A stretch of 64,000 nt of DNA from a virus (Duplodnaviria; Caudoviricetes), in the IMG/VR virus record IMGVR_UViG_3300032285_001531; one strand, written 5' to 3'. A program made the position numbers and the translations under genes. The notes under the pieces were generated by a model. That model saw only the letters and a program-made list of their open reading frames with translations, was not told the origin of the DNA and did not search any database. Below, one piece after another: positions 1-62,585 of this stretch (the stretch's first letter is position 1; each line of letters begins with the position of its first letter).

Positions 1-2
1 AC

Positions 3-755
3 TTAAAAACTATTGACGGTGTTCAAGTGGACACTATCAAGTTTATCAAATCTGAGTATGGCGGATACGCACAAGGAACTGATCTTTACATCGGTTCTAT
101 AATTATAAAAAATATTGCCAGAACAACAATTGATACTATCGATCAATTTTGCATTGATGCGTCAGGTGAATATCCTGATCGTGTTACTACATTTTTCACA
201 ATGTGTTCTATAATTGCTGATGGGGTAGACAGGCATAGTAAATTCTTACTGAATGAAATACTTGACCAAATTCAACCAAGTGTAGATTCTATAATTAACA
301 CTGTTACACATGAAATGGTTCACACAACTCAACATGGTCGCCAGTTTCAAAAAGGAAGAAGTAACCTTGAATATCGCAGTTATTTGGATAAAAAGAAAGG
401 CGAGTTTATAAAGTTACACAACAACAAAGACTGGAATAAAAATCCTCGTGCAAGAGAATTGTATTACGCTAGTCCACAAGAGATTCCTGCATTTGCACAT
501 GAAATCGCTCTGTATATTATTCGTGCGTATGCTCTACCAGAAATAACTTCAGTTGAAGAAATTTCAACAGTAACTCCTGAAGATATTACTTACGCAATGT
601 CTAGATATCCAATGATAGCAAGTCTTGCTACTAATCCTGATCCTAGAGCAAAGAAAGTTTATCAACGCTATGCTAAATTAATATACTCGGAAGTTCAGAA
701 TTACATTCAACAATTAAAACAGAAACTAACTAAAGAAGCGGTACCTGCTACTTAA
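3..755 (+). CDS. HExxH zinc-metallopeptidase-like hypothetical protein, 5'-partial (frame open from window edge)
   Basis: THEMVH (HExxH) plus downstream YYASPQEIPAFAHE. The frame has no stop upstream of GTG 27 back to base 3. Confidence 0.6.
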   Translation, partial: LKTIDGVQVDTIKFIKSEYGGYAQGTDLYIGSIIIKNIARTTIDTIDQFCIDASGEYPDRVTTFFTMCSIIADGVDRHSKFLLNEILDQIQPSVDSIINTVTHEMVHTTQHGRQFQKGRSNLEYRSYLDKKKGEFIKLHNNKDWNKNPRARELYYASPQEIPAFAHEIALYIIRAYALPEITSVEEISTVTPEDITYAMSRYPMIASLATNPDPRAKKVYQRYAKLIYSEVQNYIQQLKQKLTKEAVPAT

Positions 756-1229
756 GTTAGATTTATCATTTACCATACGGTCAAATTGACCACTCTTACC
801 ATCAAAGTAAAATCCACTAGGGTCTAGTATCTGACCTCGTAACTCAACCCAACTATGCGGTATCCATTTGAATTCTTCACGTATTGCAGGATCACTGTTT
901 ATGTATTTGATGCGGTCTGATTTCTTGCGTGGATCAAGACCTAATTGTTTCATTGCTAATTTATCTTTTGTTTCTAGTGCGTCAATATGTAGATCAGGTT
1001 CGTCTGCATGAAACCATCCATATTTTTTCTTGCCGTTGTTTACAATACCAATAGGAACAATCTCGGCATTACCTATACCTTTATTCTCTAAGAATGATAT
1101 AAAATCTTGACTGGCGCCATAACAATTATCTTGTACAAAGTAATAGTTCAATTGCATTGGACTAGCTTGCTTCCAAAACTCAATTAATAATGGATCAATT
1201 TTTGATCCTGCAAGTTCAAAGATTTTCAT
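726..1229 (-). CDS. Hypothetical protein with transglutaminase/papain-like Cys-His-Asp motif order
   Basis: Likely start ATG 1229 (MKIFEL), overlapping the upstream stop. Motifs DNCYGAS...PHSWVEL...ILDPSG. Confidence 0.55.
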   Translation of the reverse strand: MKIFELAGSKIDPLLIEFWKQASPMQLNYYFVQDNCYGASQDFISFLENKGIGNAEIVPIGIVNNGKKKYGWFHADEPDLHIDALETKDKLAMKQLGLDPRKKSDRIKYINSDPAIREEFKWIPHSWVELRGQILDPSGFYFDGKSGQFDRMVNDKSNLSSRYRFFS

Positions 1230-1714
1230 TTTATACGAGGAATGACGTTGGTATCCCAATAGCTTTTCTTACCAATGCGACTTTTATCTACGTCTGGTAA
1301 ATCTTGCCATTGTTTAGAACGTTGTTTGCTTTGCTCTACATCAAAGCCTGTGTAGTCATCAGGTACCCATTGCCATTTGTGATGATAGATCCAAGGATCA
1401 ACTGCCTGTTTAGTTACTTTAACGGTACCATCTGGTGATACTCTGATACTGGTACCACTGATTGGTTCGTCTGCAGTATCAAAGTCAGGTGATTCTATGA
1501 ATGAGAATGTTTTTAACTTGGGATTGTATTTGATTACAGTAAAGTCAAAATCATTTGGGATTTTTGATTGTGCAAACTTTAATTCGTCTGCAGGAATTCC
1601 GGCTTCTATCGCATATTGTTTATGCACATAAAGTTCTCCGCCAATACGCTTTCCTATCTTTCTAGGTTGTTGCGCAGCTTCTACTATGTTAATTAATTTA
1701 CGTATATCACTCAT
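1226..1714 (-). CDS. Stand-alone domain resembling the repeated region of DNA-phosphorothioation-associated putative methyltransferases
   Basis: Likely start ATG 1714 (MSDIRKLINIVE) just after ATAAATA (1720-1726). Motifs GKRIGGELYVH, SFIESPDFDTADEP, DPWIYHHKWQWVPDDY. Confidence 0.55.
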   Translation of the reverse strand: MSDIRKLINIVEAAQQPRKIGKRIGGELYVHKQYAIEAGIPADELKFAQSKIPNDFDFTVIKYNPKLKTFSFIESPDFDTADEPISGTSIRVSPDGTVKVTKQAVDPWIYHHKWQWVPDDYTGFDVEQSKQRSKQWQDLPDVDKSRIGKKSYWDTNVIPRIK

Positions 1715-1750
1715 AGATATATTTATCTGGCAGGGCATAACCATTAGGTA

Positions 1751-1773
1751 GAAAAAGGTAGCAAGCTACCCTT
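1751..1773 (-). terminator. Rho-independent terminator after pqqA
   Basis: Minus strand reads GGTAG-CTTG-CTACC followed by TTTTT, about 30 nt after the pqqA stop. Confidence 0.75.
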
Positions 1774-1798
1774 ATCTTAAAACTTATTTTACAATGTA

Positions 1799-1870
1799 TT
1801 AGCGATTTGCAATGTACATTGTGATTTCAAAACCAAAACGCAAATCAGTTGCTTGAGGTATTGTCCACAT
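1799..1870 (-). CDS. pqqA: PQQ precursor peptide PqqA (23 aa, [23 protein letters not shown])
   Basis: Manual translation. Contains the E-x3-Y core (EITMY) within the PqqA signature W..P...DLRFGFE.TMY..NR. RBS AAGGAG lies 6 nt upstream, a TAAATA box is at 1907-1912, and a terminator follows. Confidence 0.93.
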
Positions 1871-1887
1871 GTTATTCTCCTTAAATG

Positions 1888-1912
1888 AATACATATACTG
1901 CATATGTATTTA
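1888..1912 (-). promoter_or_regulatory. TAAATA late-promoter-like box overlapping a 9-bp inverted repeat upstream of pqqA
   Basis: aatacatat-actgc-atatgtatt at 1888-1910; tattta at 1907-1912. Confidence 0.5.
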
Positions 1913-1984
1913 AGATATAGTAACACGTAAAAACACCAAGGTATTGCAGATAATCATTGGCTGATACTAATGAAAATCATTAAA

Positions 1985-2827
1985 ATGCTCTGCGACCCTC
2001 GGCGGTAATTATAGTACTAACAGCTTCGTCTAGCTTTCGCCGCATCAACTGTTAAATACCTTCCACCCGCTCCCCGACAGGGTCCGTTCTCGCATTGCCA
2101 GCGCACTTTTCGCCTAAGTGTAAGGTCCTACGAGGAATTACCTCGCTTCTCATCTTCCGGACCAGAATAGAGTGTGATTAACACTCACGTTCTTTACGAA
2201 TTCGCCATCTTTCTAATTGAGCTAGGCGAATTTTTTCTTTTTGTTCAATAGTCATAGGAATTCCTAATTTTCCATTTGGTTTTCCTTTTTTATTTTGACT
2301 TATTTTTTGATTTACTATATCCTGTTTTTCTTTACTAAACGGTTCTTGTTGTTGGCGAGCTAATTTTTTCCTTAATCGCAACTCCTCTGAGTTTTTTCTT
2401 CCCCGTAGTTTCTTGGCTCTTGCTTCTACTACTTCACGATCCTGTTTGAACCCACTGCTACCTTCTCCGCCTTCACTTTTGTTTAATAGTATTCCAGAAC
2501 TATCAATGATTCTGCCATACCATTTAATGAGTCTACGTTCAATCGCAAATGCTCCTATTTCAGTTAATCCGTCAGCTATCAATATAATATTTTTGCCATC
2601 AGGCGGCAAAGATATTTTATTATGGGTTTCTACAATTCGTCTACCCTTACCTTTCCCTATATAATAAGGAGTTCCTTTTTTTCCGTGTCTTCCGTCTTTA
2701 GCTCTTAAATATGCATAAACGTAGAAATCTTTTGGAGTTTGAATATTGTATTTTTTTCTCATACATTTATTTATCAAACTCTAATAGAATCCTGCGGGTC
2801 AGAGTATCCGTTGACAACGGAACGTTC
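1985..2827 (-). ncRNA. Large structured ncRNA candidate (GOLLD-like by context) in two parts (2827-2778 and 2173-1985), interrupted by an endonuclease ORF
   Basis: Starts right after the tRNA-Tyr CCA. GC-rich, with hairpins CGAGG/CCTCG (2131-2145), CACTT/AAGTG (2104-2120) and TAACAG/CTGTTA. Long-range complementarity across the ORF: ACCCGC (2794-2799) with GCGGGT (2065-2070), and TAGAGT (2778-2783) with ACTCTA (2168-2173). The family name is an inference. Confidence 0.6.
2178..2762 (-). mobile_element. GIY-YIG-like homing endonuclease with basic NUMOD3-like C-terminal tail
   Basis: FYVYAYLR...PYYIGKGKGRR...EIGAFAIERRLI...ILLNKSEGGEG. Likely start ATG 2762 after an internal ATAAATA box (2767-2773). 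Confidence 0.8.
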
Positions 2828-2911
2828 TGGTGGAGATTACTGGGATCGAACCAGTCGTGCTATAAGCGGCGGATTTACAGTCCGCTGCATCACCATTGAT
2901 GCTTCATCTCC
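2828..2911 (-). tRNA. trnY: tRNA-Tyr(GTA), long variable arm, CCA encoded
   Basis: Cloverleaf with anticodon arm GCGGA-CTGTAAA-TCCGC and T loop TTCGATC. A8 and a G7-A66 mismatch noted. Confidence 0.9.
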
Positions 2912-2916
2912 TTGTA

Positions 2917-2992
2917 TGGCTGCTCAACCTGGGCTCGAACCAGGGACAAACGGATTAACAGTCCGGTGCTCTACCAACTGAGCTATTGAGCA
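2917..2992 (-). tRNA. trnN: tRNA-Asn(GTT), CCA encoded
   Basis: Acceptor TGCTCAA/TTGAGCA, anticodon loop CTGTTAA, T loop TTCGAGC. Confidence 0.95.
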
Positions 2993-3067
2993 TTAATTTA
3001 TTACGATAACTCATATTATAAGGAACTATGAGTTGAATGTCAAGTTGTATTTCTACAACAGTTAAAT

Positions 3068-3144
3068 TGGTCGGGGAAGTGGGATTCGAACTCCCGACCT
3101 CATGGTCCCAAACCATGCGCACTCCCTGGCTGTGCTACACTCCG
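3068..3144 (-). tRNA. trnP: tRNA-Pro(TGG), CCA encoded, several stem mismatches
   Basis: Anticodon arm CATGG-TTTGGGA-CCATG. Acceptor and T stems each contain two mismatches. Confidence 0.8.
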
Positions 3145-3149
3145 ATGAT

Positions 3150-3225
3150 TGGTGGAGATTGTCGGACTCGAACCGACCACCTACAGCTTGCAAAGCTGCC
3201 GCTCTCCCAGATGAGCTAAACCCCC
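3150..3225 (-). tRNA. trnA: tRNA-Ala(TGC), CCA encoded
   Basis: Anticodon loop TTTGCAA. G3:U70 alanine identity pair present. Confidence 0.95.
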
Positions 3226-3235
3226 CGATTGTTAC

Positions 3236-3310
3236 TGGTCCGGCGTGAGGGAATCGAACCCCCATAAAGGCTTTAGAAGAGCCTTGTCCTATCCGTTGAA
3301 CGAACGCCAG
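3236..3310 (-). tRNA. trnR: tRNA-Arg(TCT), CCA encoded
   Basis: Anticodon arm AGGCT-CTTCTAA-AGCCT, acceptor CTGGCGT/ACGCCGG. Confidence 0.92.
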
Positions 3311-3320
3311 TAATTTCTTC

Positions 3321-3881
3321 CTATGATAATAAGATTCTACTGTGCTTAGGAACGCCAGACATTAAGTAATCCATTTGGTCTGCTAAGATATTACGATTCT
3401 GTAATATCATATTTTCGAAATGATTTGGTTCGTATGGAACATATAACAACTCCATACTGCTTTCTTTTAATGTCATATCATCTTTCTTGCCGTTACATGG
3501 TCTACATGCAGTAACTACATTTGTCCATGCATTCAGTCCACCTCTGCTCTTTGGAACAATGTGATCTCTACTCAAGTTATGATGATTGTGAAAATGATCA
3601 CCGCAATATGCACAAACATTCCTATCACGACCGAACAATGTTTTGTTAGTCAGTGCAACTTTGCCATGCTTGCTTATGTCAAATCCATGTCCATTGATTG
3701 CGATAATGCTAGGAGTCTCAATATAGCTTTGTTGTCCGTTATTTTGAATTCCACCTCTGAACTTAGCAACTATTTCACCTAATGACCAAGCAACCATACC
3801 TTTTGCGTGATAAGTGATTGCAGTTTCATTGGAAATCCATTGTCTAGGAATTCCTGAAATATCTAATGCTAAAACAGACAT
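3321..3881 (-). CDS. HNH endonuclease
   Basis: CAYCG...DHIVPKSRGG...WTNVVTACRPCNGKK. RBS AGGAG and a TAAATA box (3899-3904) upstream. Confidence 0.9.
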   Translation of the reverse strand: MSVLALDISGIPRQWISNETAITYHAKGMVAWSLGEIVAKFRGGIQNNGQQSYIETPSIIAINGHGFDISKHGKVALTNKTLFGRDRNVCAYCGDHFHNHHNLSRDHIVPKSRGGLNAWTNVVTACRPCNGKKDDMTLKESSMELLYVPYEPNHFENMILQNRNILADQMDYLMSGVPKHSRILLS

Positions 3882-4060
3882 GATTTCTCCTATAAGTGTA
3901 TTTAGACACTCTCAAATTATAGTATTCAAAAGTGTATGGTAAAGCATACTACTCCCGATTTCAGGTCGGGGTTGGGTTTGTTATTAGTATGCTTTATCAT
4001 TCCTATTTTACTCAACTGTTATCTCCAGTCTTTCATCCAGGACTCCGCCCGTTCACAGCA

Positions 4061-4068
4061 TATTTATA
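4061..4068 (-). promoter_or_regulatory. T4-type late promoter consensus TATAAATA
   Basis: Exact TATAAATA on the minus strand, upstream of a GC-rich structured segment and the HNH/tRNA cluster. Confidence 0.6.
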
Positions 4069-4113
4069 GTGCGCTGCGAGGGCCTCGTTCCCTCTTAATA
4101 CACTTACTGCTTA

Positions 4114-4260
4114 TCAGTAGTCTAACATCTTACTGACTTTGTTGTCAACCTGTTTCCTTACTTCAATCTGTTCTTGCAATCTTTGAAACTTTTCTGTTAT
4201 CAAAGCTTCAAGTTCATCATCATTAAGGATATCAGTGTTGCTATTATCTTCTTCAAACAT
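4114..4260 (-). CDS. Small acidic hypothetical protein (48 aa, MFEEDNSNTDILNDDELEALITEKFQRLQEQIEVRKQVDNKVSKMLDY)
   Basis: Manual translation; strong RBS AAGGAG. Not in the ORF track. Confidence 0.65.
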   Translation of the reverse strand: MFEEDNSNTDILNDDELEALITEKFQRLQEQIEVRKQVDNKVSKMLDY

Positions 4261-4271
4261 TTTAGCTCCTT

Positions 4272-4308
4272 AAAACGAAAAACCCTGAGACTTTTTGAGT
4301 ACTCAGGG
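4272..4308 (-). terminator. Rho-independent terminator (candidate attenuator)
   Basis: CCCTGAG...CTCAGGG 7-bp stem followed by TTTTTCGTTTT. Its 5' arm (AAGCCC, 4306-4311) can alternatively pair with GGGCTT (4346-4351). Confidence 0.75.
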
Positions 4309-4339
4309 CTTGTAAAATTAACGTATGCAACTTTATACT

Positions 4340-4465
4340 TTAACTAAGCCCCTCAACTCTATCATAATTAATGCTTGATGAGGAATTAAAACCTGCTGGT
4401 GTCCACTGATTCACCACGCATAGTGATATCTGTTTCATCGGCTGATTAAAAGTATTTTGTTTCAT
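4340..4465 (-). CDS. Candidate leader peptide (41 aa, MKQNTFNQPMKQISLCVVNQWTPAGFNSSSSINYDRVEGLS)
   Basis: Manual translation. TAAATA box at 4474-4479. The last codons contain the putative antiterminator strand. Confidence 0.5.
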   Translation of the reverse strand: MKQNTFNQPMKQISLCVVNQWTPAGFNSSSSINYDRVEGLS

Positions 4466-4523
4466 AGTAATTTATTTAGTCCTGATGTAAAATATTATAT
4501 AGCAATCTGCCTTGTTTGTCAAA

Positions 4524-5021
4524 TTAAACTTGTCCGTTTTGCAACAGTGTTAACATATTGTTAATATTATGTGATACATCTAATGATACGGATGAAACAT
4601 ATTGTATTGTGTCTGATGGGTCTACTATAAAGATAACACGACTAAATTCAGTATCTTGTTTAGTCAGTCCTAGTTTATTTGCTAAACTTAAGTCAGGGCG
4701 TGTGTTATCTGCGAATAACCAAGAAGAAATAGTATCGTTACTATTCTTCTTCATCAAAGTCCATGCTGTTTTACTAAAGTCCTGATCGGTAGAACCTATT
4801 AATATTACAGCATTCTTGTCGGTTATAGTTTCAAACAGATTATCAATGTTGTTTAATTCTAACGGAGGAACAATCTCAAAATTGTTAGGGTAGAAAAGTA
4901 TTATTTTCCATTTATCAACAAAGTTTTTATTTGTAATTAATTTTCTGTTATTTGGACTGGTCTCATTTGGTTTGATTCCAGAAATCGCAAATTCACCTAC
5001 TGTTTCTCCTACAGCTTTCAT
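4524..5021 (-). CDS. AhpC/peroxiredoxin-fold protein lacking all cysteines
   Basis: KWKIILFYPNNFEIVPPLEL aligns with the AhpC FYP.DFTFVCPTE motif. Also GSTD, AW, LFAD and RVIFIVDP..TIQYVS. No Cys in 165 aa. RBS AGGAG. Confidence 0.8.
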   Translation of the reverse strand: MKAVGETVGEFAISGIKPNETSPNNRKLITNKNFVDKWKIILFYPNNFEIVPPLELNNIDNLFETITDKNAVILIGSTDQDFSKTAWTLMKKNSNDTISSWLFADNTRPDLSLANKLGLTKQDTEFSRVIFIVDPSDTIQYVSSVSLDVSHNINNMLTLLQNGQV

Positions 5022-5041
5022 AGTAGCTCCTAAATAATATA

Positions 5042-5437
5042 CTATTTAGTCATCTCTCCGAGACGCTTATAACCATTGTATGTAGGGTGGACTCCGTCGG
5101 TACTTACTTCAGGAATTCTGATTACTCTGTCATTATATGAGTTTGCTACTTTGACTACTATTTTCTGTCGTTCAGGTTTAATAGCAGGTAAGATCCAGAA
5201 CACACGTCCTTCAGTAATACGTGACCGTAGTGCTATTAGTTCTACTTCAGTTTTAATAGAAAAAGTATCGTTGGAACCTAAACTAATTAGTGTAGTCTTA
5301 GCTGGTTCTATCTTTGAATTATATTTGTCATTCCAAACAAGACTGCTAATACCACTTTTGGCATAAGCAACACACTCTGTACGTATGTTACTTACACCAT
5401 AAGCAATACTATCACCCAATATTAGGCAATCAATCAT
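5042..5437 (-). CDS. SGNH/GDSL hydrolase
   Basis: GDS (ILGDSIA), GxND (SLGSND) and DxxH (DGVHP) blocks. Likely start ATG 5437 in an ATGA overlap with the rubredoxin stop. Confidence 0.8.
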   Translation of the reverse strand: MIDCLILGDSIAYGVSNIRTECVAYAKSGISSLVWNDKYNSKIEPAKTTLISLGSNDTFSIKTEVELIALRSRITEGRVFWILPAIKPERQKIVVKVANSYNDRVIRIPEVSTDGVHPTYNGYKRLGEMTK

Positions 5438-5568
5438 AATATTTCGTAATCTTCCTTGCCGCAACCGCATTCTGGGCAAACAAAATCATCCGGTAATTCA
5501 TGCCATAGACCTTCAGTTGCTGGATCATGTTCATGACCACATACTACGCATATATGTACTTCACCCAT
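5434..5568 (-). CDS. Rubredoxin (44 aa, MGEVHICVVCGHEHDPATEGLWHELPDDFVCPECGCGKEDYEIL)
   Basis: CxxCG and CPxCG iron knuckles, W..LPDDF.CP.CG..K. RBS GGAGG; TAATG overlap with rubrerythrin. Not in the ORF track. Confidence 0.92.
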   Translation of the reverse strand: MGEVHICVVCGHEHDPATEGLWHELPDDFVCPECGCGKEDYEIL

Positions 5569-6035
5569 TATTGAACCTCCTGTAACATTGTTTGATATGC
5601 ACTTGCATGACGCTTTTCTACTTTTGCTAGTGCAGCAAATCGTTTTTGTGCTTTAACTAATACTTCCTTGAACTGTTCTGCATGTTCCGAACTTTCAACA
5701 ATCTGATTTCTAAACTCGTTAAGTGCAGTGCGATCACCTTCAGCTTTGGCCTGTGCTTCAAAGCCCGGATACATGACAGTAAACTCATGTGTCTCACCCT
5801 CAATAGCCATTTCTAAACATTGTTTAGTTGTTGGCTTACCTACTAGTAATTCCAAATGTCCCCAAGCATGTAATAACTCTTGGTCTGCAGTGTGTTCAAA
5901 GTGTTTAGCAACATCCTCAAACCCTTCTTCACGTGCAATCTTTGCAAAATAGCGATACTTGATATGTGCTTGACTTTCACCTGCTAATGCAGCCTCAAGA
6001 TTTTTTAATGTGTCTGATACCTTTTCAAATGGCAT
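5568..6035 (-). CDS. rbr: Rubrerythrin (short, ferritin-like di-iron protein without fused rubredoxin domain)
   Basis: NLEAALAGESQAHIKYRYFAKIAREEG, ExxH (QELLHA), EGETHE..MYPGF, ESSEHA. Likely start ATG 6035. Confidence 0.9.
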   Translation of the reverse strand: MPFEKVSDTLKNLEAALAGESQAHIKYRYFAKIAREEGFEDVAKHFEHTADQELLHAWGHLELLVGKPTTKQCLEMAIEGETHEFTVMYPGFEAQAKAEGDRTALNEFRNQIVESSEHAEQFKEVLVKAQKRFAALAKVEKRHASAYQTMLQEVQ

Positions 6036-6166
6036 AGTGTTTCCTTTCAATGTGTGTATATTATATATGCCTATTAGCACCGTTGTAAATATAGGTTTTG
6101 GCTATTTTTTGATTGTATTTTTCAATAGAATTAATAGGTGATGTCAATCTATTTGTAAATAGAACT

Positions 6167-7051
6167 ATGCCCTCAGGAATAGTTTTCAACCCAAATAGTT
6201 ACGATATAGTATTCTTAAGCTATGATGAACCAAACGCTGACATAAACTATCAGCACCTTCTTTCAATAAAACCCAAAGCAATGAGAGTACATGGAGTCAA
6301 AGGCAGTGATGCCGCACATAAAGCATGTGCTGAGTTAGTTAAGACTGAACGTGTTATAATTGTAGACGGAGACAATCATGTATTGCCCAATATATTTGGT
6401 CGTAACGTTTATACCAAAACAGATTATGATTGGACTGATAAAGTATTCAGTTGGAGTAGCGTCAACGTAATTAATCATACTAGCTATGGCAACGGTGGAG
6501 TTAAATGCTGGCCTGTCAAATTGATTAAAGAAATGCGTACACATGAAGTAGGGTCGAGTATTGATTTTGACTTATCCAATTACCTAGAACTCAACGCAAT
6601 AGGCAGTCACACTATCATAAACGGTTCTGCTAAACAAGCATTTAGAGCAGGATTCAGAGATGGAGTAAAACTTAGTTTAGTCAAAGATGATTGGCGAACT
6701 GATAATAGACTGTACAACTGGTTGCACGTAGGCAGTGACGTAGAGTTTGGGCTGTGGACTATATATGGTGCTAGACTAGGACGATTCATGTTGAAACGTG
6801 ATTTTGATGTAACTATATTGAATGACTTTGATAAATTGAATCAGATGTTCAGCAAATATTACGGGATAGCACATAATAATCTTGAATATGAATGCAATAG
6901 ATTAGGTGAATTATTAGATATAGGCCCAGTGCTAAGTATAGAAGAAAGTATAAATTTTAAACAGAATTACAAAGCACCTATAAGAAGTCCAGAACTTTTT
7001 ATGGGTGGCGATAGACAAGATGCTATAAATAAATTTAATGAACGAATTTGA
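6167..7051 (+). CDS. Glycosyltransferase-like (GT-A, DxD) protein
   Basis: YDIVFLSYDEPNAD...GVKGSDAAHKACA...VDGDN. Likely start ATG 6167 after TAAATA (6156-6161). Confidence 0.6.
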   Translation: MPSGIVFNPNSYDIVFLSYDEPNADINYQHLLSIKPKAMRVHGVKGSDAAHKACAELVKTERVIIVDGDNHVLPNIFGRNVYTKTDYDWTDKVFSWSSVNVINHTSYGNGGVKCWPVKLIKEMRTHEVGSSIDFDLSNYLELNAIGSHTIINGSAKQAFRAGFRDGVKLSLVKDDWRTDNRLYNWLHVGSDVEFGLWTIYGARLGRFMLKRDFDVTILNDFDKLNQMFSKYYGIAHNNLEYECNRLGELLDIGPVLSIEESINFKQNYKAPIRSPELFMGGDRQDAINKFNERI

Positions 7052-8018
7052 TAAGATACCATTTGATAGAATAACAAAATTTGGGCAACAGACAATGTTG
7101 CAATATCCTCTTTTTTCTATTAGTTGGATACTAGGAAGATTCTGTAATTATAAATGCTCATATTGTTGGCCCTATGCTAACTCCAGTACACCAGACTATC
7201 AATCACTAGATACATATAAAAAATCTATAGACGAAATAAAACGTCAAGCCAAAGCAAATGGATTCAGAGACTTTCATTGGTCTTTTAGTGGTGGTGAGCC
7301 AACTGCATATAAACATCTACTAGAATTAATCAGACACCTAGATGATAATGTTACTCCCTATCAAAGCATACACCTGACTACTAATTTAAGCCCTAGTAAG
7401 AAGTGGTGGATGAATTGGGGAATGGCAACTGAGTTGATTCAACGTAAGTCAATCACTGCAAGTTTTCATAGTGAGTTTGCAAACGAAAGTGAATTCACTG
7501 ACAAGTGTTTATTCTTAATGGGCGAAAATGTACATGTTACTATCAATCAAGTAATGGTACCTGATCAGTTTGATGAACTATATGCCCGTTGCAAACGATT
7601 TAGTGATAAAGGAATAAATGTAACATTAAAGCCACAAAGTAATGATACTGCCACAGAGATAGTAAGCGGCTACAATGATGAAATGATTACACTTATGCGT
7701 AACGGTTTTCCACAGCAACATAAAAAGACACAGTTCTATCAAATCAAATTATATGAAAACGATACTGAATATGAATTGGATCAAGCAGAAAGATTCAATG
7801 CGTTTGGGTTTAATAAGTTTGAAGGATGGAGTTGTAATTCAGGATATCAAAGTGTTATAATACGTAGTAATGAGGTTAAGCGTGGCTATAGTTGTCGTGA
7901 TGAAATATTAGGCACATTAGATAATGGCTTTACCTTATTCAGTGAACCAAAAGTTTGTGTGACTCCTAGTTGCGTGAGTAGTGCAGACAGTAAGATACCA
8001 AAATGCAAATTGACTTAG
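7038..8018 (+). CDS. Radical SAM protein with C-terminal Cys cluster (SPASM/twitch-like)
   Basis: CNYKCSYC, SFSGGEP; C-terminal C...C...C...CVSSAD. Confidence 0.9.
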   Translation: MNEFDKIPFDRITKFGQQTMLQYPLFSISWILGRFCNYKCSYCWPYANSSTPDYQSLDTYKKSIDEIKRQAKANGFRDFHWSFSGGEPTAYKHLLELIRHLDDNVTPYQSIHLTTNLSPSKKWWMNWGMATELIQRKSITASFHSEFANESEFTDKCLFLMGENVHVTINQVMVPDQFDELYARCKRFSDKGINVTLKPQSNDTATEIVSGYNDEMITLMRNGFPQQHKKTQFYQIKLYENDTEYELDQAERFNAFGFNKFEGWSCNSGYQSVIIRSNEVKRGYSCRDEILGTLDNGFTLFSEPKVCVTPSCVSSADSKIPKCKLT

Positions 8019-8596
8019 ACCATGTAATGTTTTGGATGGATGCTATACGTAATAGCAGTGACCCTAAGCGCACATTAGAATCATTTTGGAAGGGTCAATT
8101 ACGTAGTAAGCGTTGGCTAATAGAAGAACTAACTCCATTCATAGTTGAGCCTATGAGTTTTGATATACACGGTGGTTGGAACGGAGTATTAGCAAGTATG
8201 ATATTCCAAAGCAATATGCCTGTAAAGAATATTCGTAGTGTAGACATTGATCCTTCATGTGAAGAAATTTGTCGCACAATGAATAAGTTAGAAGAAATAG
8301 CAGGACGTTTTCGTGCAGTAACCGCAGATATGTGTAATATACGTAGTGATGCGGATGTCATTATCAATACAAGTTGTGAACATATATCACAGGATGAATA
8401 TGATATGTGGCTAAGCGGCATACCTCAGAACAGTCTTATAGTGTTACAAAGTAATGATTATAAGATTGATGAACACGTTAGAGTGGTTGACAGTTTAGAA
8501 GAATTTGTAAGTCAGAGTGACATTGATGTAGAGTATAGTGGCGAGTTTGAATTGCCACTATATACTCGTTATATGATTATTGGAAACAAATACTAA
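8003..8596 (+). CDS. Class I SAM-dependent methyltransferase-like protein
   Basis: IHGGWNGVLA, RSVDIDP, TADM, IINTSCEH. Confidence 0.7.
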   Translation: MQIDLDHVMFWMDAIRNSSDPKRTLESFWKGQLRSKRWLIEELTPFIVEPMSFDIHGGWNGVLASMIFQSNMPVKNIRSVDIDPSCEEICRTMNKLEEIAGRFRAVTADMCNIRSDADVIINTSCEHISQDEYDMWLSGIPQNSLIVLQSNDYKIDEHVRVVDSLEEFVSQSDIDVEYSGEFELPLYTRYMIIGNKY

Positions 8597-9651
8597 TTGT
8601 CCCAAACAGTAGGATTGTTTATTCTACCCGTAAAGTTCCCGCAATTGCCTGCACATGCTGCTAAGCGACCCTCACTATATTTACGCCCATCCCAACTCTC
8701 TTGTATCTTGTTATAAAATACATTGTCTATGATGTTATGCCACTCAGTTTCATATAGATTAACTTTACTTTTACCTTCAGTATCCCAAAGATGATCCCAA
8801 CCATCGGGTACAGTTAATGTTACTCTGCTATATAAACTAGCACCTAAGAAACAACAAGGAAATACATTACCCTGACTGTCAATATATACACTACGGTCTT
8901 TCTTAGCATAGCAATCTATATTACTATTCTCACTACTATCTAACCATTGCTGTACATCTAATTTCTTTAATGGTTGCATGACCACACTGTGTACATATTT
9001 CTCATCAGTTGGTGGCTCAATTATAACTCCATCTGTACCAACAGGTCTACGACCTAAAATATTATCTAATGCGAATCTATGACTAGATATAATGATAAAG
9101 TTTTTAAAGCCTAAGTCTTTGCTAAGTTCTTTTGCTTCATCTACTTGATGTTGATTATGTTTGAATACAATGAACTGCCAATTAGCAATACCACCTGCAT
9201 TAATGAATGCTATACTGTTAACCATTACCTTCTGATAGTTTACATTCATACGATAGATATGATTAGTATTCGATAACCCATCTATAGCAAAGTTAACCTC
9301 ATGATTGGGACCTAATGCTTCTACTAACATAGTCCAAAATATAGGGTTCTTCATGCCACCATTAGTGCTAATCTTAATCATAGCATTAGGAGCTTTCTCT
9401 CTAGCCTTCTTTACTACCTCAATAAAGTTTGGGGCAGCGCACGGATCTCCCATTGTGCCACTGAATAATATCTTTTTTATATTTGCATATACATGATCGG
9501 GTATACGGTCAAAGAACTCTGTTGTCAAGTGTGTTTGCTTGAACCAACTATAGTCACCCGGATATGTTTCACGTAAGCATTGTGGACATGCAGCATTACA
9601 TATACTGCTGTTCTCTATATCTAAGTTTATTATGTTATCGTAGAAATTCAT
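8593..9651 (-). CDS. Radical SAM/SPASM protein
   Basis: CNAACPQC, FSGTMGDP, STNGG, FAIDG; C-terminal PCC and CAGNC. Confidence 0.9.
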   Translation of the reverse strand: MNFYDNIINLDIENSSICNAACPQCLRETYPGDYSWFKQTHLTTEFFDRIPDHVYANIKKILFSGTMGDPCAAPNFIEVVKKAREKAPNAMIKISTNGGMKNPIFWTMLVEALGPNHEVNFAIDGLSNTNHIYRMNVNYQKVMVNSIAFINAGGIANWQFIVFKHNQHQVDEAKELSKDLGFKNFIIISSHRFALDNILGRRPVGTDGVIIEPPTDEKYVHSVVMQPLKKLDVQQWLDSSENSNIDCYAKKDRSVYIDSQGNVFPCCFLGASLYSRVTLTVPDGWDHLWDTEGKSKVNLYETEWHNIIDNVFYNKIQESWDGRKYSEGRLAACAGNCGNFTGRINNPTVWDN

Positions 9652-9659
9652 GTAGTTAT

Positions 9660-10352
9660 TTAATTTATTTTAATAGCCTGATCTATCAATGATTCAGGAT
9701 AGTTACTTCTAAAGCTATTAAAACATATTAGTTGTAATGTTGGTATATCGTATGGTGTATCTAAATCCATTTTATAATGATCCAACATTAATTGCAACTT
9801 ATCCTGACGGTCTATGCTTATTTGTATTAGCAAATCACGTATTTTAATTTTAGGATCAGTTTTATTAAAAGAAAAGAACCAATTATATGGAGTAAGCACT
9901 CCGTCTATAGCTACCCAACTGTTCGGATGTAAACTAAATTTATAAATGCCTGCTTTCTTCATTTCAGTGATTCTATCTAACCACTGTGCTTGCCAGTTCG
10001 GTAATACTTTATCGTATCCACCATTGTTAATCCCTTGCATTAAAAAATCATCACCATGCCAATCAATGTATATTTCTCTTTTGAAAACATTAATGTCTTG
10101 TATTTTTAATGTGGGTATACTTGCTTTACGTGCAATCTCATGAAAAGTTACTTCACGTGAAAATCTATCAGTAAGAAGTTCGTTTGTCCAAAGTTTGTTT
10201 TCTTCTGGCCATCTGTGGTAATTAACATCTCTGTTAAAACTCATGCATAATGTTTTCTTATCCGGGCTTACGTAAGGAGTGTATACTAAGTTAGAACGTA
10301 CCCATTCTTGTCCTTCTAAATTATAAAGAAATGTCCAATTATCAGTTATCAT
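9660..10352 (-). CDS. Protein-kinase-like fold protein with non-canonical catalytic motifs
   Basis: FSREV...IPTLKIQD...IYIDWHG, and GIYKFSLHPNS...DGVLTPYNWF at the positions of HxDxxxxN and DFG. Confidence 0.4.
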   Translation of the reverse strand: MITDNWTFLYNLEGQEWVRSNLVYTPYVSPDKKTLCMSFNRDVNYHRWPEENKLWTNELLTDRFSREVTFHEIARKASIPTLKIQDINVFKREIYIDWHGDDFLMQGINNGGYDKVLPNWQAQWLDRITEMKKAGIYKFSLHPNSWVAIDGVLTPYNWFFSFNKTDPKIKIRDLLIQISIDRQDKLQLMLDHYKMDLDTPYDIPTLQLICFNSFRSNYPESLIDQAIKIN

Positions 10353-10368
10353 ATATTTGTCTCCTGAA

Positions 10369-10383
10369 TATTTATAATAAATA
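10369..10383. promoter_or_regulatory. Back-to-back divergent late-promoter boxes
   Basis: TATAAATA on minus (10369-10376) abuts ATAAATA on plus (10377-10383), between divergent genes that each have an AGGAG RBS. Confidence 0.6.
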
Positions 10384-10399
10384 CCAACAGGAGAATAAA

Positions 10400-11182
10400 A
10401 TGATTCGTGGCATAGGTGGAAAACCTTTTATTAATTTAGATAATCTAATAGACATTGACGGATTTAAAAAGCTACACTATAAAATCTGCAAGGGGATACT
10501 AGATTCTGATTACAAAAAAGAAGGCAATATGGTTCAGCCCGGTGGGTTTAATAACGCATATGAGTTAACCTTTAAGCCATTGTTTCAAGCATTAGAAGAA
10601 TATCATAATTTACCCGAGGATCATGAAATTAGAATTTTGGGTAGAGAAATAGGTGAATATCAAAATCGTGATAAATTTATGCTGTTTCTTAAACTAGCAC
10701 TAGGTGCATATGATGCATATCAATTTGTATTTTTAAAGACCGAAGAAGGTGGTTGGGAAAGTAGATTTGAAGAAAAAGCATGGACTCCTGATGCAAAGTA
10801 TTTCCCTGAACTTAAACTATGGTTAGAAAATTTGATTACCACAGGTGTATTCAAACACTTAGGTAGAATCATAATTTTTAAAGCAGAGCATGATTGTTAT
10901 ATGCCATTACACAGAGATTTAATTTATCCTGAAGAAAACGATTACTTTAATCATAGACATGAGTTTATACATTTACGTACTAACTTAGATAAACCTTTTT
11001 ATATTTGGGATCGTGATGCTGATAGTAAGATACTAACAGATAGTCATGCTACATTTTTTAACGATCAGGACTGGCATGCAGGTGGACGCACTAATAAACA
11101 AACCTATAGCATACGTGTTGATGGTATATTTACTGATGAATTTCGTGAAAAGATGGGAATCAATAATTTAGATTTTTATTGA
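10400..11182 (+). CDS. 2OG-Fe(II) oxygenase-like (double-stranded beta-helix) protein
   Basis: GRIIIF...MPLHRD...WHAG...SIRVDG (HxD...H...R). Start ATG 10400 with CAGGAG RBS. Confidence 0.65.
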   Translation: MIRGIGGKPFINLDNLIDIDGFKKLHYKICKGILDSDYKKEGNMVQPGGFNNAYELTFKPLFQALEEYHNLPEDHEIRILGREIGEYQNRDKFMLFLKLALGAYDAYQFVFLKTEEGGWESRFEEKAWTPDAKYFPELKLWLENLITTGVFKHLGRIIIFKAEHDCYMPLHRDLIYPEENDYFNHRHEFIHLRTNLDKPFYIWDRDADSKILTDSHATFFNDQDWHAGGRTNKQTYSIRVDGIFTDEFREKMGINNLDFY

Positions 11183-12639
11183 TTAAGTTTTTTACGTTTA
11201 TATTTTTCAATATGTGCCTGCTTTGCAAAATAATATGTACTTGTCTCGTTGTTAATTATTTCTTCTAATACATTATCATTTATTAAAGACTTTGGCTGCT
11301 CAAAGAAATGAGCCATAGTAAAATTGTTTACAGGATTGGTATTGATAGTAGAATCATTAAAATCATATGCCATTTTCTTTGCTGTGGCATGAGTAAAATG
11401 ATCGTTCTGCCAATTTATAACATGATTGTGTTTAAATATATTATATGAATCATCGTATTCTTCTTCAGTGTTTAATCTATAGCCATACTTTTGAAGATCC
11501 AAAGAAATCTTACTCGGCTTAAGTGATTTACTATCCACAGATGGAATTTCAAGACCAAAACTTTTTACACTTTGATGATTCTTAATCCAGTAATTATCAA
11601 TCCAATCAAATGTATCCTGTTGAGTGTCAACTGTTTCACCGGGCAAGCCAATTACTAAAGCTATAGTTGCACGATAGGGTAAACTTTCAGATTTAAAATA
11701 ACTAATAACGTCTAATAGACCTTGCTGAAGTCTTTCCTTTTTGATTCCTTTTCCTATAAATTTAGCTGTAGGGGTGTTCATAGTTTCTATACCATAGAAG
11801 TGACCAAGTAAACCCATGCGAGCCATATGCTCTCTATCCTGTTTTCGTAGTACTAATAAATCTGCTCTAATAAAGCCTGAGAAATAAGGATTGAAACTTA
11901 ACTGTTCAGTAGCATCTGCAAATTTTATTAGTTTCTCTGTACTTTCATTTATAGTTTCATCACCAATTAGATATTTTGTTACACCGTAATCATCATATGT
12001 TCTTTGTAGTTGCGTAGTATAATTATCAGCATCTCGTGTATAATCGCCCTTTACTCCAAGTATAGGAAAATTACAGTATGGACATTCAAACTTGCATCCG
12101 CGTCCAAGCTCTATGCCTAACCATTCGTTAGATTCTATATAATCTCTTTTTTCATAAACTATATCTAAGTCTTTTAAAGGTGCGCTAGGATAAAAAGAAT
12201 TACCGTCAATAACTTTTTTATCATACATAATTTTAAATCTTACCGATGGGCCATTGCCTACAAGATTTTTCAACAAGGCTAAAATAGCATTTTCTCCAAA
12301 TCCTGTTATATAATAATCAATGTCTTTAGAAATAGTATCTGGAATATATTGACCGCCTATAACCATTTTAACTTGTGGGTAATTAATTTTAACCCAAGAA
12401 ATAAATGAATCAATTTCTGGAGGATACAGTCCAAAAGTACAACTGAATCCTAATAGTTTTGTAGAAGAATCAATTCTTTGAGTAGCAAGTAATTTTAACT
12501 CATCTAATGAAAAATAGTTAGCCCAATCTATTACTTCAACATCCCAATCATTTTTTCTCATTATAGTAGCAATACGATGAGCACCAGGACTTCGGTATGG
12601 CATGTCTGTTTGAAGATTAAAAATTATAGATTTAAACAT
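11176..12639 (-). CDS. Cobalamin-binding radical SAM protein (class B methylase-like)
   Basis: N-terminal B12-binding region (GAHRIAT...GFSCTF...VIGG...GFGE), IELGRGCKFECPYC, GIET, IGLPGET. Confidence 0.88.
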   Translation of the reverse strand: MFKSIIFNLQTDMPYRSPGAHRIATIMRKNDWDVEVIDWANYFSLDELKLLATQRIDSSTKLLGFSCTFGLYPPEIDSFISWVKINYPQVKMVIGGQYIPDTISKDIDYYITGFGENAILALLKNLVGNGPSVRFKIMYDKKVIDGNSFYPSAPLKDLDIVYEKRDYIESNEWLGIELGRGCKFECPYCNFPILGVKGDYTRDADNYTTQLQRTYDDYGVTKYLIGDETINESTEKLIKFADATEQLSFNPYFSGFIRADLLVLRKQDREHMARMGLLGHFYGIETMNTPTAKFIGKGIKKERLQQGLLDVISYFKSESLPYRATIALVIGLPGETVDTQQDTFDWIDNYWIKNHQSVKSFGLEIPSVDSKSLKPSKISLDLQKYGYRLNTEEEYDDSYNIFKHNHVINWQNDHFTHATAKKMAYDFNDSTINTNPVNNFTMAHFFEQPKSLINDNVLEEIINNETSTYYFAKQAHIEKYKRKKLNQ

Positions 12640-13123
12640 CGTAGATTGTTAGTTGTAGACTTACTTTAGGTATGAATGTTAGATTAGCACTACCATGTAA
12701 TGCAGTTGGATCATCAAATTCAAATATATCACCGGCTTGATAATCAGAGATAAGTTTATCTTTGTAAACAAATATATGACCTGTAATGTAGTCTTGATAA
12801 GGAATCCAAAGTCGCCTAACATTACAGCCGTTATCTTTAAATGTATCTACGTGCATTGGAAATAAACATGCAGGATCAAGACGAACGAACCACCAATCTA
12901 TGTTTCCTGTATACGGTATTGGCAATTCAATATCATTGATTCCAATTTCTTCGTAATAAAATCTCCATCTTGCGCCGGCTACATCAAGACCTTGATAGTC
13001 TTTGCCTTGCGCTCTTGCCTTTTCGCTTTCTTCTTTCCCAGGACGAACTTGACCTTCACTGTTCATTACTGCATCAAGTAATTCTTGCTTTACCCAATTT
13101 TTATAATTTCCTAGATATTTCAT
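12632..13123 (-). CDS. 2OG-Fe(II)/Asp-Asn beta-hydroxylase-like oxygenase
   Basis: FPMHVD...RRLWIP...GHIF...LHGSAN...KVSLQLT. Confidence 0.7.
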   Translation of the reverse strand: MKYLGNYKNWVKQELLDAVMNSEGQVRPGKEESEKARAQGKDYQGLDVAGARWRFYYEEIGINDIELPIPYTGNIDWWFVRLDPACLFPMHVDTFKDNGCNVRRLWIPYQDYITGHIFVYKDKLISDYQAGDIFEFDDPTALHGSANLTFIPKVSLQLTIYDV

Positions 13124-13125
13124 AG

Positions 13126-13137
13126 ATAAGTATTTAT
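13126..13137. promoter_or_regulatory. Overlapping divergent late-promoter-like boxes
   Basis: ATAAGTA on plus (13126-13132) and ATAAATA on minus (13131-13137), in a 15-bp gap between divergent genes. Confidence 0.5.
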
Positions 13138-13138
13138 T

Positions 13139-14527
13139 ATGTCAGATAGAATCAAAACATTTATAAAACTCATTGAAGATAGAACCGGTACTCCAACATT
13201 CTGCGCACTACCTTGGATACATTTAGCAACTAGACCTAATGGAGATGCTAGACTATGCTGTGTTACTAATGCTAGTGGCGCACATACAGGAGATCATACT
13301 GTAGGATTAGTTAAAAAAGAAAACGGTGTTCCTGCAAACTTCGGTAAAGATACCCCATTAAGTGCAATTAATAATCAATATATGCGTGATGTACGACTAA
13401 CAATGTTAGACGGAAAGATCCCTGCAAGTTGCACAAAATGCTTTGAGGAAGAAGATAACGGTGTAGTCAGCAAAAGATTATGGGAACTATATTCATGGGA
13501 TAAAGATGGACTAGACTTTAATGAATTAATAGATAATACGCAAGTTGACGGAACTATTCCTCCTGTGTTAAGATACTTAGACTTACGTTTAGGACATACT
13601 TGTAATCTTAAATGTGTTATGTGTAGCCCGCATGATAGTAGTCGCTGGTTACAAGACTATGAGAAAGTAATGAGTAAAACTACTAGTCCTATTGTTATTA
13701 AACAAATCAAATGGGATAAGTTAGAATTTGATAATTTTTGGTATGAAAAATCAGAGTTTTGGGATGAAATATTCGAACAAATTCCCAATATAACTCAGCT
13801 ATACTTTGCTGGTGGTGAGCCATTAATGATTAAAGAACATCGTAGATTCTTAGATGAGATAATCAAACGTGGATATAATAAGCAAATTACATTAAGATAT
13901 AATAGTAACGGAATATATGTTAATGACGATATTATTAATGTATGGAGCCAATTTAAAGAAGTAAAGTATGCATTCAGTATTGACGGAAACTTCGATAGAA
14001 ACGGATACATACGATTCCCAACAGACTGGACAGATATTGAACGTAGCCTAGATTTACTAGACAATACTCCAGACAATATTCATTGTAGTATTGCTTGTGC
14101 TGTACAAGTGTTGAATATCAAACACATCGTTAATTTCGCCAAGTGGAAACTGTCGAAAGGCTACAAGAAAATCAACAAGTACAAGATGGATGACTATGAA
14201 GCAGGTGGTGGCATAATTAGTCTACACTTGCTTTATATTCCTACATTCTTATCTGCACGTATTCTTCCAGAGAAGGATAAAGCAGAAGTAAGACAACAAA
14301 TATTAGATTTTAAGGAATGGTTATGGACAAATTATACACAAGACGAGAATTTTTGGCAGGTAAATCCTTATGGATGGAAGCGTTGGGAAGCTATCTTACG
14401 TTTTATAGACAAGGAAGATCATAGTCATATGGTCCCCGACTTTGCAGAATATGTAAAGAACTTAGATAGTATTAGGGGAACAGATTTCGCTGCGACTTTC
14501 CCTGAACTCGCACATCTACTTTCGTAA
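13139..14527 (+). CDS. Radical SAM protein with N-terminal twitch/SPASM-like domain
   Basis: FCALPWIH...RLCC...CTKCF; CNLKCVMC; YFAGGEP. Confidence 0.9.
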   Translation: MSDRIKTFIKLIEDRTGTPTFCALPWIHLATRPNGDARLCCVTNASGAHTGDHTVGLVKKENGVPANFGKDTPLSAINNQYMRDVRLTMLDGKIPASCTKCFEEEDNGVVSKRLWELYSWDKDGLDFNELIDNTQVDGTIPPVLRYLDLRLGHTCNLKCVMCSPHDSSRWLQDYEKVMSKTTSPIVIKQIKWDKLEFDNFWYEKSEFWDEIFEQIPNITQLYFAGGEPLMIKEHRRFLDEIIKRGYNKQITLRYNSNGIYVNDDIINVWSQFKEVKYAFSIDGNFDRNGYIRFPTDWTDIERSLDLLDNTPDNIHCSIACAVQVLNIKHIVNFAKWKLSKGYKKINKYKMDDYEAGGGIISLHLLYIPTFLSARILPEKDKAEVRQQILDFKEWLWTNYTQDENFWQVNPYGWKRWEAILRFIDKEDHSHMVPDFAEYVKNLDSIRGTDFAATFPELAHLLS

Positions 14528-15401
14528 GAGGAATATCTGCTGCACATGTGCAACTGTCACGTGTGCAGATTACAGGATCAATAGGTAATTCAAATGTATC
14601 ATTATATATATTACCTAAACTTCCTCCTACTCTACATGTAGCACGATGTACTTCCCCGTCCCAATTAATCATTAAACTTTCTAATCCTGCAGTACAAGTC
14701 CAACCCTTAAACTTATTCTTATGCAATTTAATTATGTCATTGGCATGCATTAGTTCTATATCATCAATAATAGTGTTAGGCTTAACAGTTGCAGTTCTAC
14801 TTAATATCCAGTCTAAATCATTTTGGTCATAGCGCATATCGTCAAATATATTATGATCACCTTCTGTCCAACGTATTCTGCGTATAGCATATGGTATATC
14901 CCATCTATCAAAAGCAAAGACTGCCTTACGAACTTCTTCCATCTTATCAGGATGAGCCATGACATTAATCATAAAAGGCTTGATTACTGCTTCAGGACTA
15001 TCGGATCTAGCAAACATTAATATATTCTCTAATACATTTTCCCAGTCATATTCAAAGTGTAAGCTGAATACATAATGACTAACAGGTAAATTAAGATAAT
15101 AACTTGCTTTTCTAGTTCCATTAGTAGTAACGTTGATCCACTGTATATCACTATCTACACAATACTGTACTAATTCTTCGAACTGTGGATGTACACAGGG
15201 TTCTCCACCTGTAAAGCTAATTCTACTACTCTTTGAAAGCTTATCTACTGCACGTTTAAGTATCTCTATATCTGTATGCGGGCTAGATAAGTCATGTATC
15301 TGTGAAGGACAATAACTACAGTCATAGTTACAGCGTTTCCCTAAGTTCCATTCAACCTTAATCTTATCCTGATGTGCGTATGCGCTTGTTATTTTATACA
15401 T
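14472..15401 (-). CDS. Radical SAM/SPASM protein
   Basis: CNYDCSYC, SFTGGEP, TTNG; C-terminal CTAG...CRVGG...CTRDSCTCAAD. Confidence 0.9.
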   Translation of the reverse strand: MYKITSAYAHQDKIKVEWNLGKRCNYDCSYCPSQIHDLSSPHTDIEILKRAVDKLSKSSRISFTGGEPCVHPQFEELVQYCVDSDIQWINVTTNGTRKASYYLNLPVSHYVFSLHFEYDWENVLENILMFARSDSPEAVIKPFMINVMAHPDKMEEVRKAVFAFDRWDIPYAIRRIRWTEGDHNIFDDMRYDQNDLDWILSRTATVKPNTIIDDIELMHANDIIKLHKNKFKGWTCTAGLESLMINWDGEVHRATCRVGGSLGNIYNDTFELPIDPVICTRDSCTCAADIPLTKVDVRVQGKSQRNLFP

Positions 15402-18227: not shown

Positions 18228-18250
18228 AATTTTATTTAATAAATATAGTC

Positions 18251-19997: not shown

Positions 19998-20067
19998 TTG
20001 ATTTTTTCCGTGAATAAATATTCTACTATTTAACAAGATAATCCTACACCAGATTTAAAAATACATA

Positions 20068-30738: not shown

Positions 30739-31173
30739 TTATATTTTTTTTAGTAATGTTGCTATATCGATGTGTTTTTTGACCGTAAAGTCTTGTAGAC
30801 AGTTATTTACTACCGTATCGGGCCAGTAATTAAGTACATATTTTGCGTTATCTACTAGGACTAGTACCACATCGTTACCAAAACTGTCAGTGGCCTCAAC
30901 GATTTTAACGTCATCAATTCCACTCATGTGTAGAGTATAACACATTCCTAACGCTCTTGCAACTGTACAATAGGTATTTTCTACCAGAAGTTCCCATGGA
31001 CTGGGCCAGTTATATATGTCATAGATGTGAAGATAATGGGTAAGAAGTGGAGCTTTTTGCCACCATGCATCCACTTCTATACATTTGGATTTGATATCAA
31101 GGTCTATTATTTGCTGCTTTAAATCATGCCAATTTTGTAATCTTGTTTCGTAATCAACCTGAAAAATGTTCAT
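30739..31173 (-). CDS. Hypothetical phage protein
   Basis: WWQKAP...WPSPWELL.EN.YC..ARALGMCYTL; intact ORF. Confidence 0.6.
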   Translation of the reverse strand: MNIFQVDYETRLQNWHDLKQQIIDLDIKSKCIEVDAWWQKAPLLTHYLHIYDIYNWPSPWELLVENTYCTVARALGMCYTLHMSGIDDVKIVEATDSFGNDVVLVLVDNAKYVLNYWPDTVVNNCLQDFTVKKHIDIATLLKKI

Positions 31174-35247: not shown

Positions 35248-35248
35248 G

Positions 35249-62581: not shown

Positions 62582-62585
62582 AATT

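Follow-up and report, generated by a model that had tools for sequence, protein, structure and literature searches.

Methylotrophs such as OM43 and LD28, which abound in marine and lake waters, gain their energy through methanol and alcohol dehydrogenases that use PQQ as cofactor. The closest described counterparts of the gene considered here come from Lake Baikal, where Coutinho et al. (2020, Microbiome 8:163; PMC7678222) found viral PqqA in phages of populations VP_266 and VP_139, with Methylophilaceae as the predicted hosts, and proposed it as an auxiliary gene that raises PQQ for methanol oxidation. A reading of the present DNA made from its letters alone (the sequence-only reading) had implied that a phage-borne pqqA was new; viral PqqA and its auxiliary role have been in print since 2020 (PMC7678222). 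A 2026 survey lists virus-encoded pqqA, pqqD and pqqE (PMC13188868), and the paper describing the Melnitz phages mentions PQQ only as a medium supplement.

Bacterial precedents for a pqqA gene standing by itself also exist. Methylophilaceae carry 3-12 copies of pqqA per single pqqBCDEFG set (PMC4109929), and some orphan copies are highly expressed, to the point that they can be among the highest (PMC9851590). The orphan chromosomal copies of Methylophilaceae and other methylotrophs likewise lie apart from pqqBCDE(FG), but these are cellular, whereas the copy described here is viral. Operon-borne PqqA, as in Acinetobacter and Derxia, belongs to the same family and has the same length and invariant residues, but our copy has no adjacent pqqB-E.

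We analysed a 64-kb stretch of viral DNA, referred to as the window, and compared its pqqA locus with these systems. Like the Baikal phages, whose contig has ~35% GC, the window (33-40%) has a stand-alone PqqA gene, and like the Baikal companion contig it carries radical-SAM genes, methyltransferases and NrdA/NrdB. The Baikal contigs carry a methanol dehydrogenase, whereas the window is without one; this comparison is one of descriptions, not of sequences. Cultured Methylophilales phages with pqqA, which range from 35 to 142 kb, resemble the window in having an orphan pqqA of 23-24 aa that is preceded by a Shine-Dalgarno (SD) site and has no further pqq gene close by, at 61-65% peptide identity. 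Their peptides are of the Methylophilaceae type (..EMRFGFEVTMYVMNK), whereas the C-terminal half of the window peptide is of the type found in other Burkholderiales. The idea of a viral pqqA is thus already known, and what the window copy adds is a peptide of two host types and a clear view of a cassette made up of hairpin, SD site, ORF and terminator. The anatomy of this cassette and its wide occurrence are not described in PMC7678222 and were seen here.

The window gene is a genuine member of the PqqA family. The sequence-only reading had reported a 72-nt gene for PqqA, and we find it as a minus-strand coding sequence (Table 1) whose product passes the cut-offs of both relevant models: 36.2 bits against PF08042 (cut-off 21.1, E 5.6e-9) and 31.8 bits against the NCBIfam equivalog TIGR02107 (cut-off 20). 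Correcting the PF08042 E-value for the number of small six-frame ORFs in the window, a few thousand, still leaves ~1e-5. The peptide is 23 aa long, which fits the class of short ribosomal peptides (~20-40 aa), and the E-x3-Y motif named in that reading is present as the cross-link pair E15-I-T-M-Y19. We aligned the window PqqA with six copies from phages and one from a bacterial operon (Acinetobacter; filed as phage). Ten positions are invariant in this alignment (W2, T3, P5, R11, G13, F14, E15, T17, M18 and Y19), and E15 and Y19 are also present in 160 of the 160 viral and cellular homologues listed. The gene has a G+C content of 36%, which is phage-like and unlike that of the high-GC Burkholderiales, and only one copy exists in the window. 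A longer, 34-aa reading from an ATG at 1903 has neither a ribosome-binding site nor conservation.

Table 1. Features of the pqqA cassette and radical-SAM ORFs of the window
Feature	Position	Strand	Remarks
Putative -10, TGT-TACTAT / CTATAT	1915..1925	minus	Position matches boxes of relatives
TAAATA box of the sequence-only reading	1907..1912	minus	Overlaps 5' arm of hairpin (1910-1902)
5'-UTR hairpin, 10-bp stem and 3-nt loop	1888..1910	minus	-6.4 kcal/mol; 17 nt upstream of ATG
Shine-Dalgarno AAGGAG	1877..1882	minus	6-nt spacer to ATG; read from sequence
pqqA coding sequence, 23 codons and TAA	1799..1870	minus	ATG 1870, TAA 1801-1799; PF08042 and TIGR02107
Intrinsic terminator, G+C stem, CUUG-type loop and five U	1750..1771	minus	-10.1 kcal/mol; stem 1771-1757
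rSAM-SPASM ORF	8593-9651		SPASM-domain match
Twitch (N_Twi) radical-SAM ORF	13139-14527		
Radical-SAM ORF with twitch (N_Twi) and SPASM matches	15394-16725		

All features of the cassette lie on the minus strand, which the sequence-only reading did not give. The 5' inverted repeat, the AAGGAG ribosome-binding site and the intrinsic terminator that it listed are all present. The arms of the inverted repeat (1910-1902 and 1896-1888) fold as a hairpin with a z-score of -3.15, and none of 200 shuffles folded equally well. The TAAATA box is a different matter: the sequence is there, but its promoter role is probably wrong, since the box overlaps an arm of the hairpin and, if it served as a -10, would start the RNA inside the hairpin loop. 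Judged by comparison with related loci, TACTAT/CTATAT (1922-1915) is the likelier -10 element, and an RNA directed by it would start at the foot of the stem-loop. Eight related loci (L010, L024, L028, L035, L041, L067, L073 and L018) have a TATAAT, TATTAT or TACAAT box 3-6 nt upstream of the homologous hairpin.

The same short-unit design recurs in related viral contigs, in keeping with the earlier description of a stand-alone unit. An SD-like site precedes pqqA in 85 of the 86 viral loci, and a terminator-like hairpin follows it in 45 of the 86, where random windows taken from these loci would predict 3.0. Upstream, at 16-30 nt from the ATG, 48% of the loci have a perfect stem of 7 bp or more, compared with 21% of the controls. 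Across its whole length the cassette is 81% identical in DNA sequence to that of L010 (over 196 nt) and 76% identical to that of L009 (over 181 nt), terminator stem included, and the core of this stem is kept in both.

Hairpins homologous to the one in the window were found in L010, L009, L031, L024, L028, L035 and L041, with loops of 3-11 nt and with compensatory changes in the stem. Specifically, an A-U pair of the window is replaced by G-C in L010 and L009, and a U-A pair is replaced by C-G in the main group. These hairpins were scored locus by locus and then compared by eye; MAFFT and RNAalifold run on the 5' UTRs predicted no structure, the alignment having left the hairpins out of register. 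A search of Rfam around pqqA returned no match. Compensatory changes together with variable loops fit an RNA structure better than a DNA operator of fixed spacing.

The sequence-only reading had also stated that no pqqB-E is present in the window, which agrees with our searches. Using PqqB, C, D and E of Acinetobacter as queries, tblastn and blastp found no pqqB, pqqC or pqqD in the 64 kb, and for PqqE they gave only weak similarity to the radical-SAM core (best E 2e-4, with 22-29% identity over the CxxxCxxC core). Adjacency to pqqBCDE, which is typical of PqqA genes though not obligatory, is therefore not seen here. Nor is it seen in other viral loci: among the best 80 of at least 585 IMG/VR loci, none has pqqB-E in flanks of up to 10 kb on each side. 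The same queries applied to 80 cellular loci found pqqB-E within 6 kb on each side in 45, leaving 35 as orphans. For PqqB and PqqD, the absence covers the window and the 80 IMG/VR loci. Four large related viral records, of which one is 93% complete, were also searched for PqqC and PqqE, and neither was found above the cut-off. A PQQ methanol dehydrogenase is missing from the window, and no methanol dehydrogenase was found in three of the four records (including the 93% complete one) or in a fifth record. The positive controls for these searches, taken from Derxia and Methylovorus, scored 335, 516 and 654 bits.

The radical-SAM similarity comes from a part of the window that the sequence-only reading had not mentioned. 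Six ORFs with Pfam-confirmed radical-SAM domains, and a seventh (18909-20036) with weak similarity to the PqqE core, lie within 13 kb at 7038-20036. The set comprises two N_Twi_rSAM proteins, one B12-binding protein, one rSAM-SPASM protein, two short viperin/MoaA-like proteins and the one weak candidate. Against NCBIfam, the N_Twi_rSAM model gave 383 and 332 bits, with PhpK-like and W-cofactor maturase models far below their cut-offs, and the remaining ORFs matched a B12-type methyltransferase-like protein or generic SPASM or viperin-like families. The PqqE model TIGR02109 is missing from the four complete NCBIfam match lists, and no PqqD/RRE domain was found in the scanned ORFs. These ORFs are not PqqE orthologues, and their best matches are to other families. 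Such a density of radical-SAM genes is unusual for a phage. An Asp/Asn hydroxylase-like gene lies among them, and together they look like a separate modification cluster.

We measured how widely pqqA occurs in viruses, a check that had been suggested with the sequence-only reading. A tblastn search of the peptide against GenBank phages matched 12 records, ten of which carry a viral pqqA. Nine of the ten are cultured phages of Methylophilales/Methylophilaceae (MEP301, Venkman, P19250A, MEP401, MEP402 and four Melnitz isolates) and one is an uncultured spring virus. Every cultured Methylophilales phage returned by the search has the gene. In these ten records, however, pqqA is either unannotated or hidden under a call on the wrong strand. 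Gene callers almost always miss pqqA, so surveys of viral auxiliary genes undercount it. Two records named 'Acinetobacter phage MD-2021a' were rejected as viral examples because they are bacterial pqqABCDE loci. These two, CAKLQF020000010.1 and CAKLQH020000055.1 (L003), contain a chromosomal-looking ppk together with pqqABCDE and are probably bacterial contigs.

In IMG/VR, an alignment query found relatives of pqqA in at least 585 contigs (585 of the 600 candidate stretches listed), and an exact 50-mer of the window pqqA is absent from that database. Viral pqqA is under purifying selection: over 77 distinct viral coding sequences, pN/pS is 0.22 (pN 0.145, and pS 0.66, which is saturated), and third codon positions are the most variable. 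One of the IMG/VR contigs, L043 (3300025120_009955, locus 2205-3974), has a methanol-dehydrogenase-family gene 6-8 kb from pqqA. Its product is 48% identical to the Methylovorus enzyme over 598 aa, and the pairing is the same as in Lake Baikal.

The window itself looks viral throughout. Five tRNAs at 2828-3310 are flanked by an HNH endonuclease and by a GIY-YIG-like ORF, the latter recognised by its motifs and without a family match. Phage-type NrdA and NrdB and a cell-wall hydrolase are present, and further matches are to tail-fibre, tail-fibre-assembly and virion-structural domains; most ORFs are without a Pfam match. No housekeeping genes were seen in the window, and its G+C content is 33-40%. 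In a set of IMG/VR contigs, pqqA is likewise accompanied by genes for an AhpC-like protein, a rubrerythrin, the 145-aa product of ORF 5042-5479, NrdAB and the hydrolase, and one contig that shares this neighbourhood is part of a 163.5-kb IMG/VR record that is 93% complete. Megablast of positions 1-8000 against GenBank phages gave no match, and the ribonucleotide reductase (RNR) and ORF 33859-35286, used as guides to phage relatives, gave distant matches only. No close cultured relative of the window phage was found.

Two genes of this neighbourhood belong to a redox trio at 4524-6080, made up of an AhpC-like peroxiredoxin, a 44-aa rubredoxin and a rubrerythrin. AhpC, rubrerythrin and the SGNH-like 145-aa ORF (5042-5479) have homologues close to pqqA in over a dozen related IMG/VR contigs, at a distance of no more than 4 kb and frequently of no more than 1 kb.

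The sequence-only reading had pointed to a PQQ-making proteobacterial host, and the phage relatives and peptide matches narrow this to a betaproteobacterium, either of the Methylophilaceae or of other Burkholderiales. The peptide is mosaic in make-up: the 'MW' start and the length of 23 aa are of the Methylophilaceae/phage type (Methylotenera: MWTIP...), whereas the C-terminal half is identical to that of Oxalobacteraceae, Burkholderiaceae, Derxia and several other Burkholderiales outside the Methylophilaceae. In total, 20 of 22 residues are identical to the cellular PqqA of Oxalobacteraceae, Burkholderiaceae and Derxia. To judge from these matches, the host is most likely a PQQ-making betaproteobacterium. 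It is somewhat probable that the host belongs to the Methylophilaceae; a host among the other Burkholderiales is possible but less probable. Because the peptide is a mosaic, its fit to the PqqD and PqqE of any particular host is an assumption. More generally, pqqA serves well as a marker of phages that infect PQQ-making betaproteobacteria.

We consider it likely that the window carries a genuine, selectively maintained pqqA of a tailed phage, acting as an auxiliary metabolic gene that resupplies the consumed precursor to the host's PqqB-E. Supply of the precursor to the host PQQ pathway, as the sequence-only reading had proposed, is supported as the most economical reading: the gene is an orphan in the window, and PqqC and PqqE are absent from the four related viral records. 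We infer that the gene is transcribed, that its product is matured by host enzymes and that the phage gains in fitness. The cassette would be transcribed as its own short RNA from a -10-like box; this RNA would begin at or close to a stem-loop and go on to a strong SD site, 23 codons and a terminator. With its 5' stem-loop and terminator, it may be stable and abundant. Host PqqD and PqqE would recognise the phage peptide and cross-link Glu15 to Tyr19, and host peptidases together with PqqB and PqqC would complete its conversion to PQQ. Each molecule of PQQ uses up one peptide, and the phage probably stops host transcription, so that a phage copy would keep up or raise the supply of PqqA, the sole consumable part, for as long as the host enzymes persist. 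The result would be sustained activity of PQQ-dependent (methanol/alcohol) dehydrogenases, and with it a supply of energy during infection. An antioxidant role for phage-supplied PQQ, also put forward in the sequence-only reading, is speculation.

The bacterial practice of keeping multiple and orphan copies of pqqA agrees with precursor resupply. A functional analogy is offered by cyanophage psbA, which encodes the D1 protein and whose expression during infection has been demonstrated. As proposed for the window phage, phages with psbA bring along only the quickly consumed component of the host's energy machinery and take the rest from the host. The protein and the pathway are unrelated, however, and expression, demonstrated for psbA, is something that we infer for pqqA. 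That a phage should bring its own precursor peptide suggests that the supply of PqqA limits the energy metabolism of infected cells.

The explanations that compete with precursor supply are, taken together, unlikely. The least improbable of them, though still very unlikely, is that radical-SAM enzymes of the phage itself (such as the one encoded at 8593-9651) act on the peptide and turn it into PQQ or another cross-linked product independently of host PqqE and PqqD. Radical-SAM ORFs do lie 5-18 kb from pqqA, two of them with SPASM matches and two with twitch matches, and Coutinho et al. tied viral radical-SAM genes to PQQ (PMC7678222). However, no radical-SAM protein of the window reaches PqqE, given the missing TIGR02109 match and an identity of 22-29% that is confined to the core, and the scanned ORFs contained no PqqD/RRE, PqqB or PqqC. 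Both strands carry radical-SAM genes, and tRNAs, homing endonucleases and redox genes lie between them and pqqA. Among 80 viral loci, four have radical-SAM homologues within 10 kb of pqqA and 76 have no such neighbour; in phages of 35-44 kb that also carry pqqA, the flanks, inspected over 3-4 kb, are free of radical-SAM genes. The more specific proposal that a phage radical-SAM/SPASM enzyme cross-links the phage PqqA, so that the phage has a partly self-sufficient peptide-modification pathway leading to PQQ or to a new product, is slightly less probable again.

We rate as equally improbable the view that pqqA is a functionless passenger, either a recently captured host fragment or a mobile cassette. 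The cassette is ~76-81% identical to those of L010 and L009, yet the 20-kb stretch of L009 is otherwise little like the window, which could reflect mobility. A passenger would not be expected to show a pN/pS of 0.22 (with synonymous sites saturated), an SD site kept in 85 of 86 loci, a G+C content of 36% that matches the phage rather than high-GC Burkholderiales, or a presence in unrelated phage families and in no fewer than 585 IMG/VR contigs. The peptide might instead be a decoy or regulator that titrates host PqqD/PqqE, or a small regulatory protein, lowering or redirecting PQQ synthesis. Nothing speaks for this directly, and it is conceivable only through the two-host-type mosaic of the peptide; it is slightly more doubtful than a passenger. 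Both cross-linking residues and every invariant position of PqqA are retained, so the phage peptide should act as a substrate. Other phages that carry this gene infect obligate methylotrophs, whose energy supply depends on PQQ, and the methanol-dehydrogenase-family gene near pqqA in L043 points to supply and not to inhibition. Least probable of all is that the contig is bacterial or a degraded prophage and the gene the host's own orphan pqqA, a possibility that the sequence-only reading had itself raised. Orphan pqqA is common in bacteria (35 of 80 cellular loci; see also PMC4109929), and the two records filed under Acinetobacter phage really are bacterial pqqABCDE loci. The window, in contrast, has the five-tRNA array with HNH and GIY-YIG genes, NrdAB, the hydrolase, and tail-fibre, virion-structural and RCC1 fibre-like ORFs; its gene order is common to IMG/VR contigs, including the 163.5-kb record that is 93% complete; and housekeeping genes were not seen.

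Several other features of the window were observed in passing. On the minus strand, 40251-62090 is taken up by two giant ORFs lying side by side (3963 and 3315 aa), which contain dozens of RCC1 repeats, with concanavalin-A-like lectin domains in the first. Upstream of them on the same strand are a tail-fibre-assembly-like ORF (62093-62599) and a tail-fibre-like ORF (62586-63656), and the giant ORFs are probably giant fibres. We considered whether they might be PQQ-dependent beta-propeller dehydrogenases and rejected this, as they have RCC1 repeats and lectin-like domains instead. A block for glycan or nucleotide-sugar modification lies at 31154-40191; it contains several methyltransferases, a 2OG-Fe(II) oxygenase and a GT2-like protein as well as a nucleotide-sugar epimerase and a cytidylyltransferase.

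Beside the tRNAs, we found a conserved, G+C-rich, structured non-coding RNA of ~190 nt that is without an Rfam match (1983-2198 and 2785-2827 of the window, minus strand). Homologues occur in L073 (15616-15796), L042, L067 (~7640-7830) and L009 (~2660-2850), and RNAalifold on five homologues predicted 48 pairs, with compensatory changes at 12. The RNA lies directly 3' of a tRNA-like ...CCA end in L073 and L067. The window has a partial 5' copy (~45 nt) after tRNA-Tyr that is interrupted by the GIY-YIG ORF (2777-2178), and a full copy continues beyond this ORF. Because the copies are split around it, the endonuclease gene appears to have been inserted into or beside the gene for the ~190-nt RNA.
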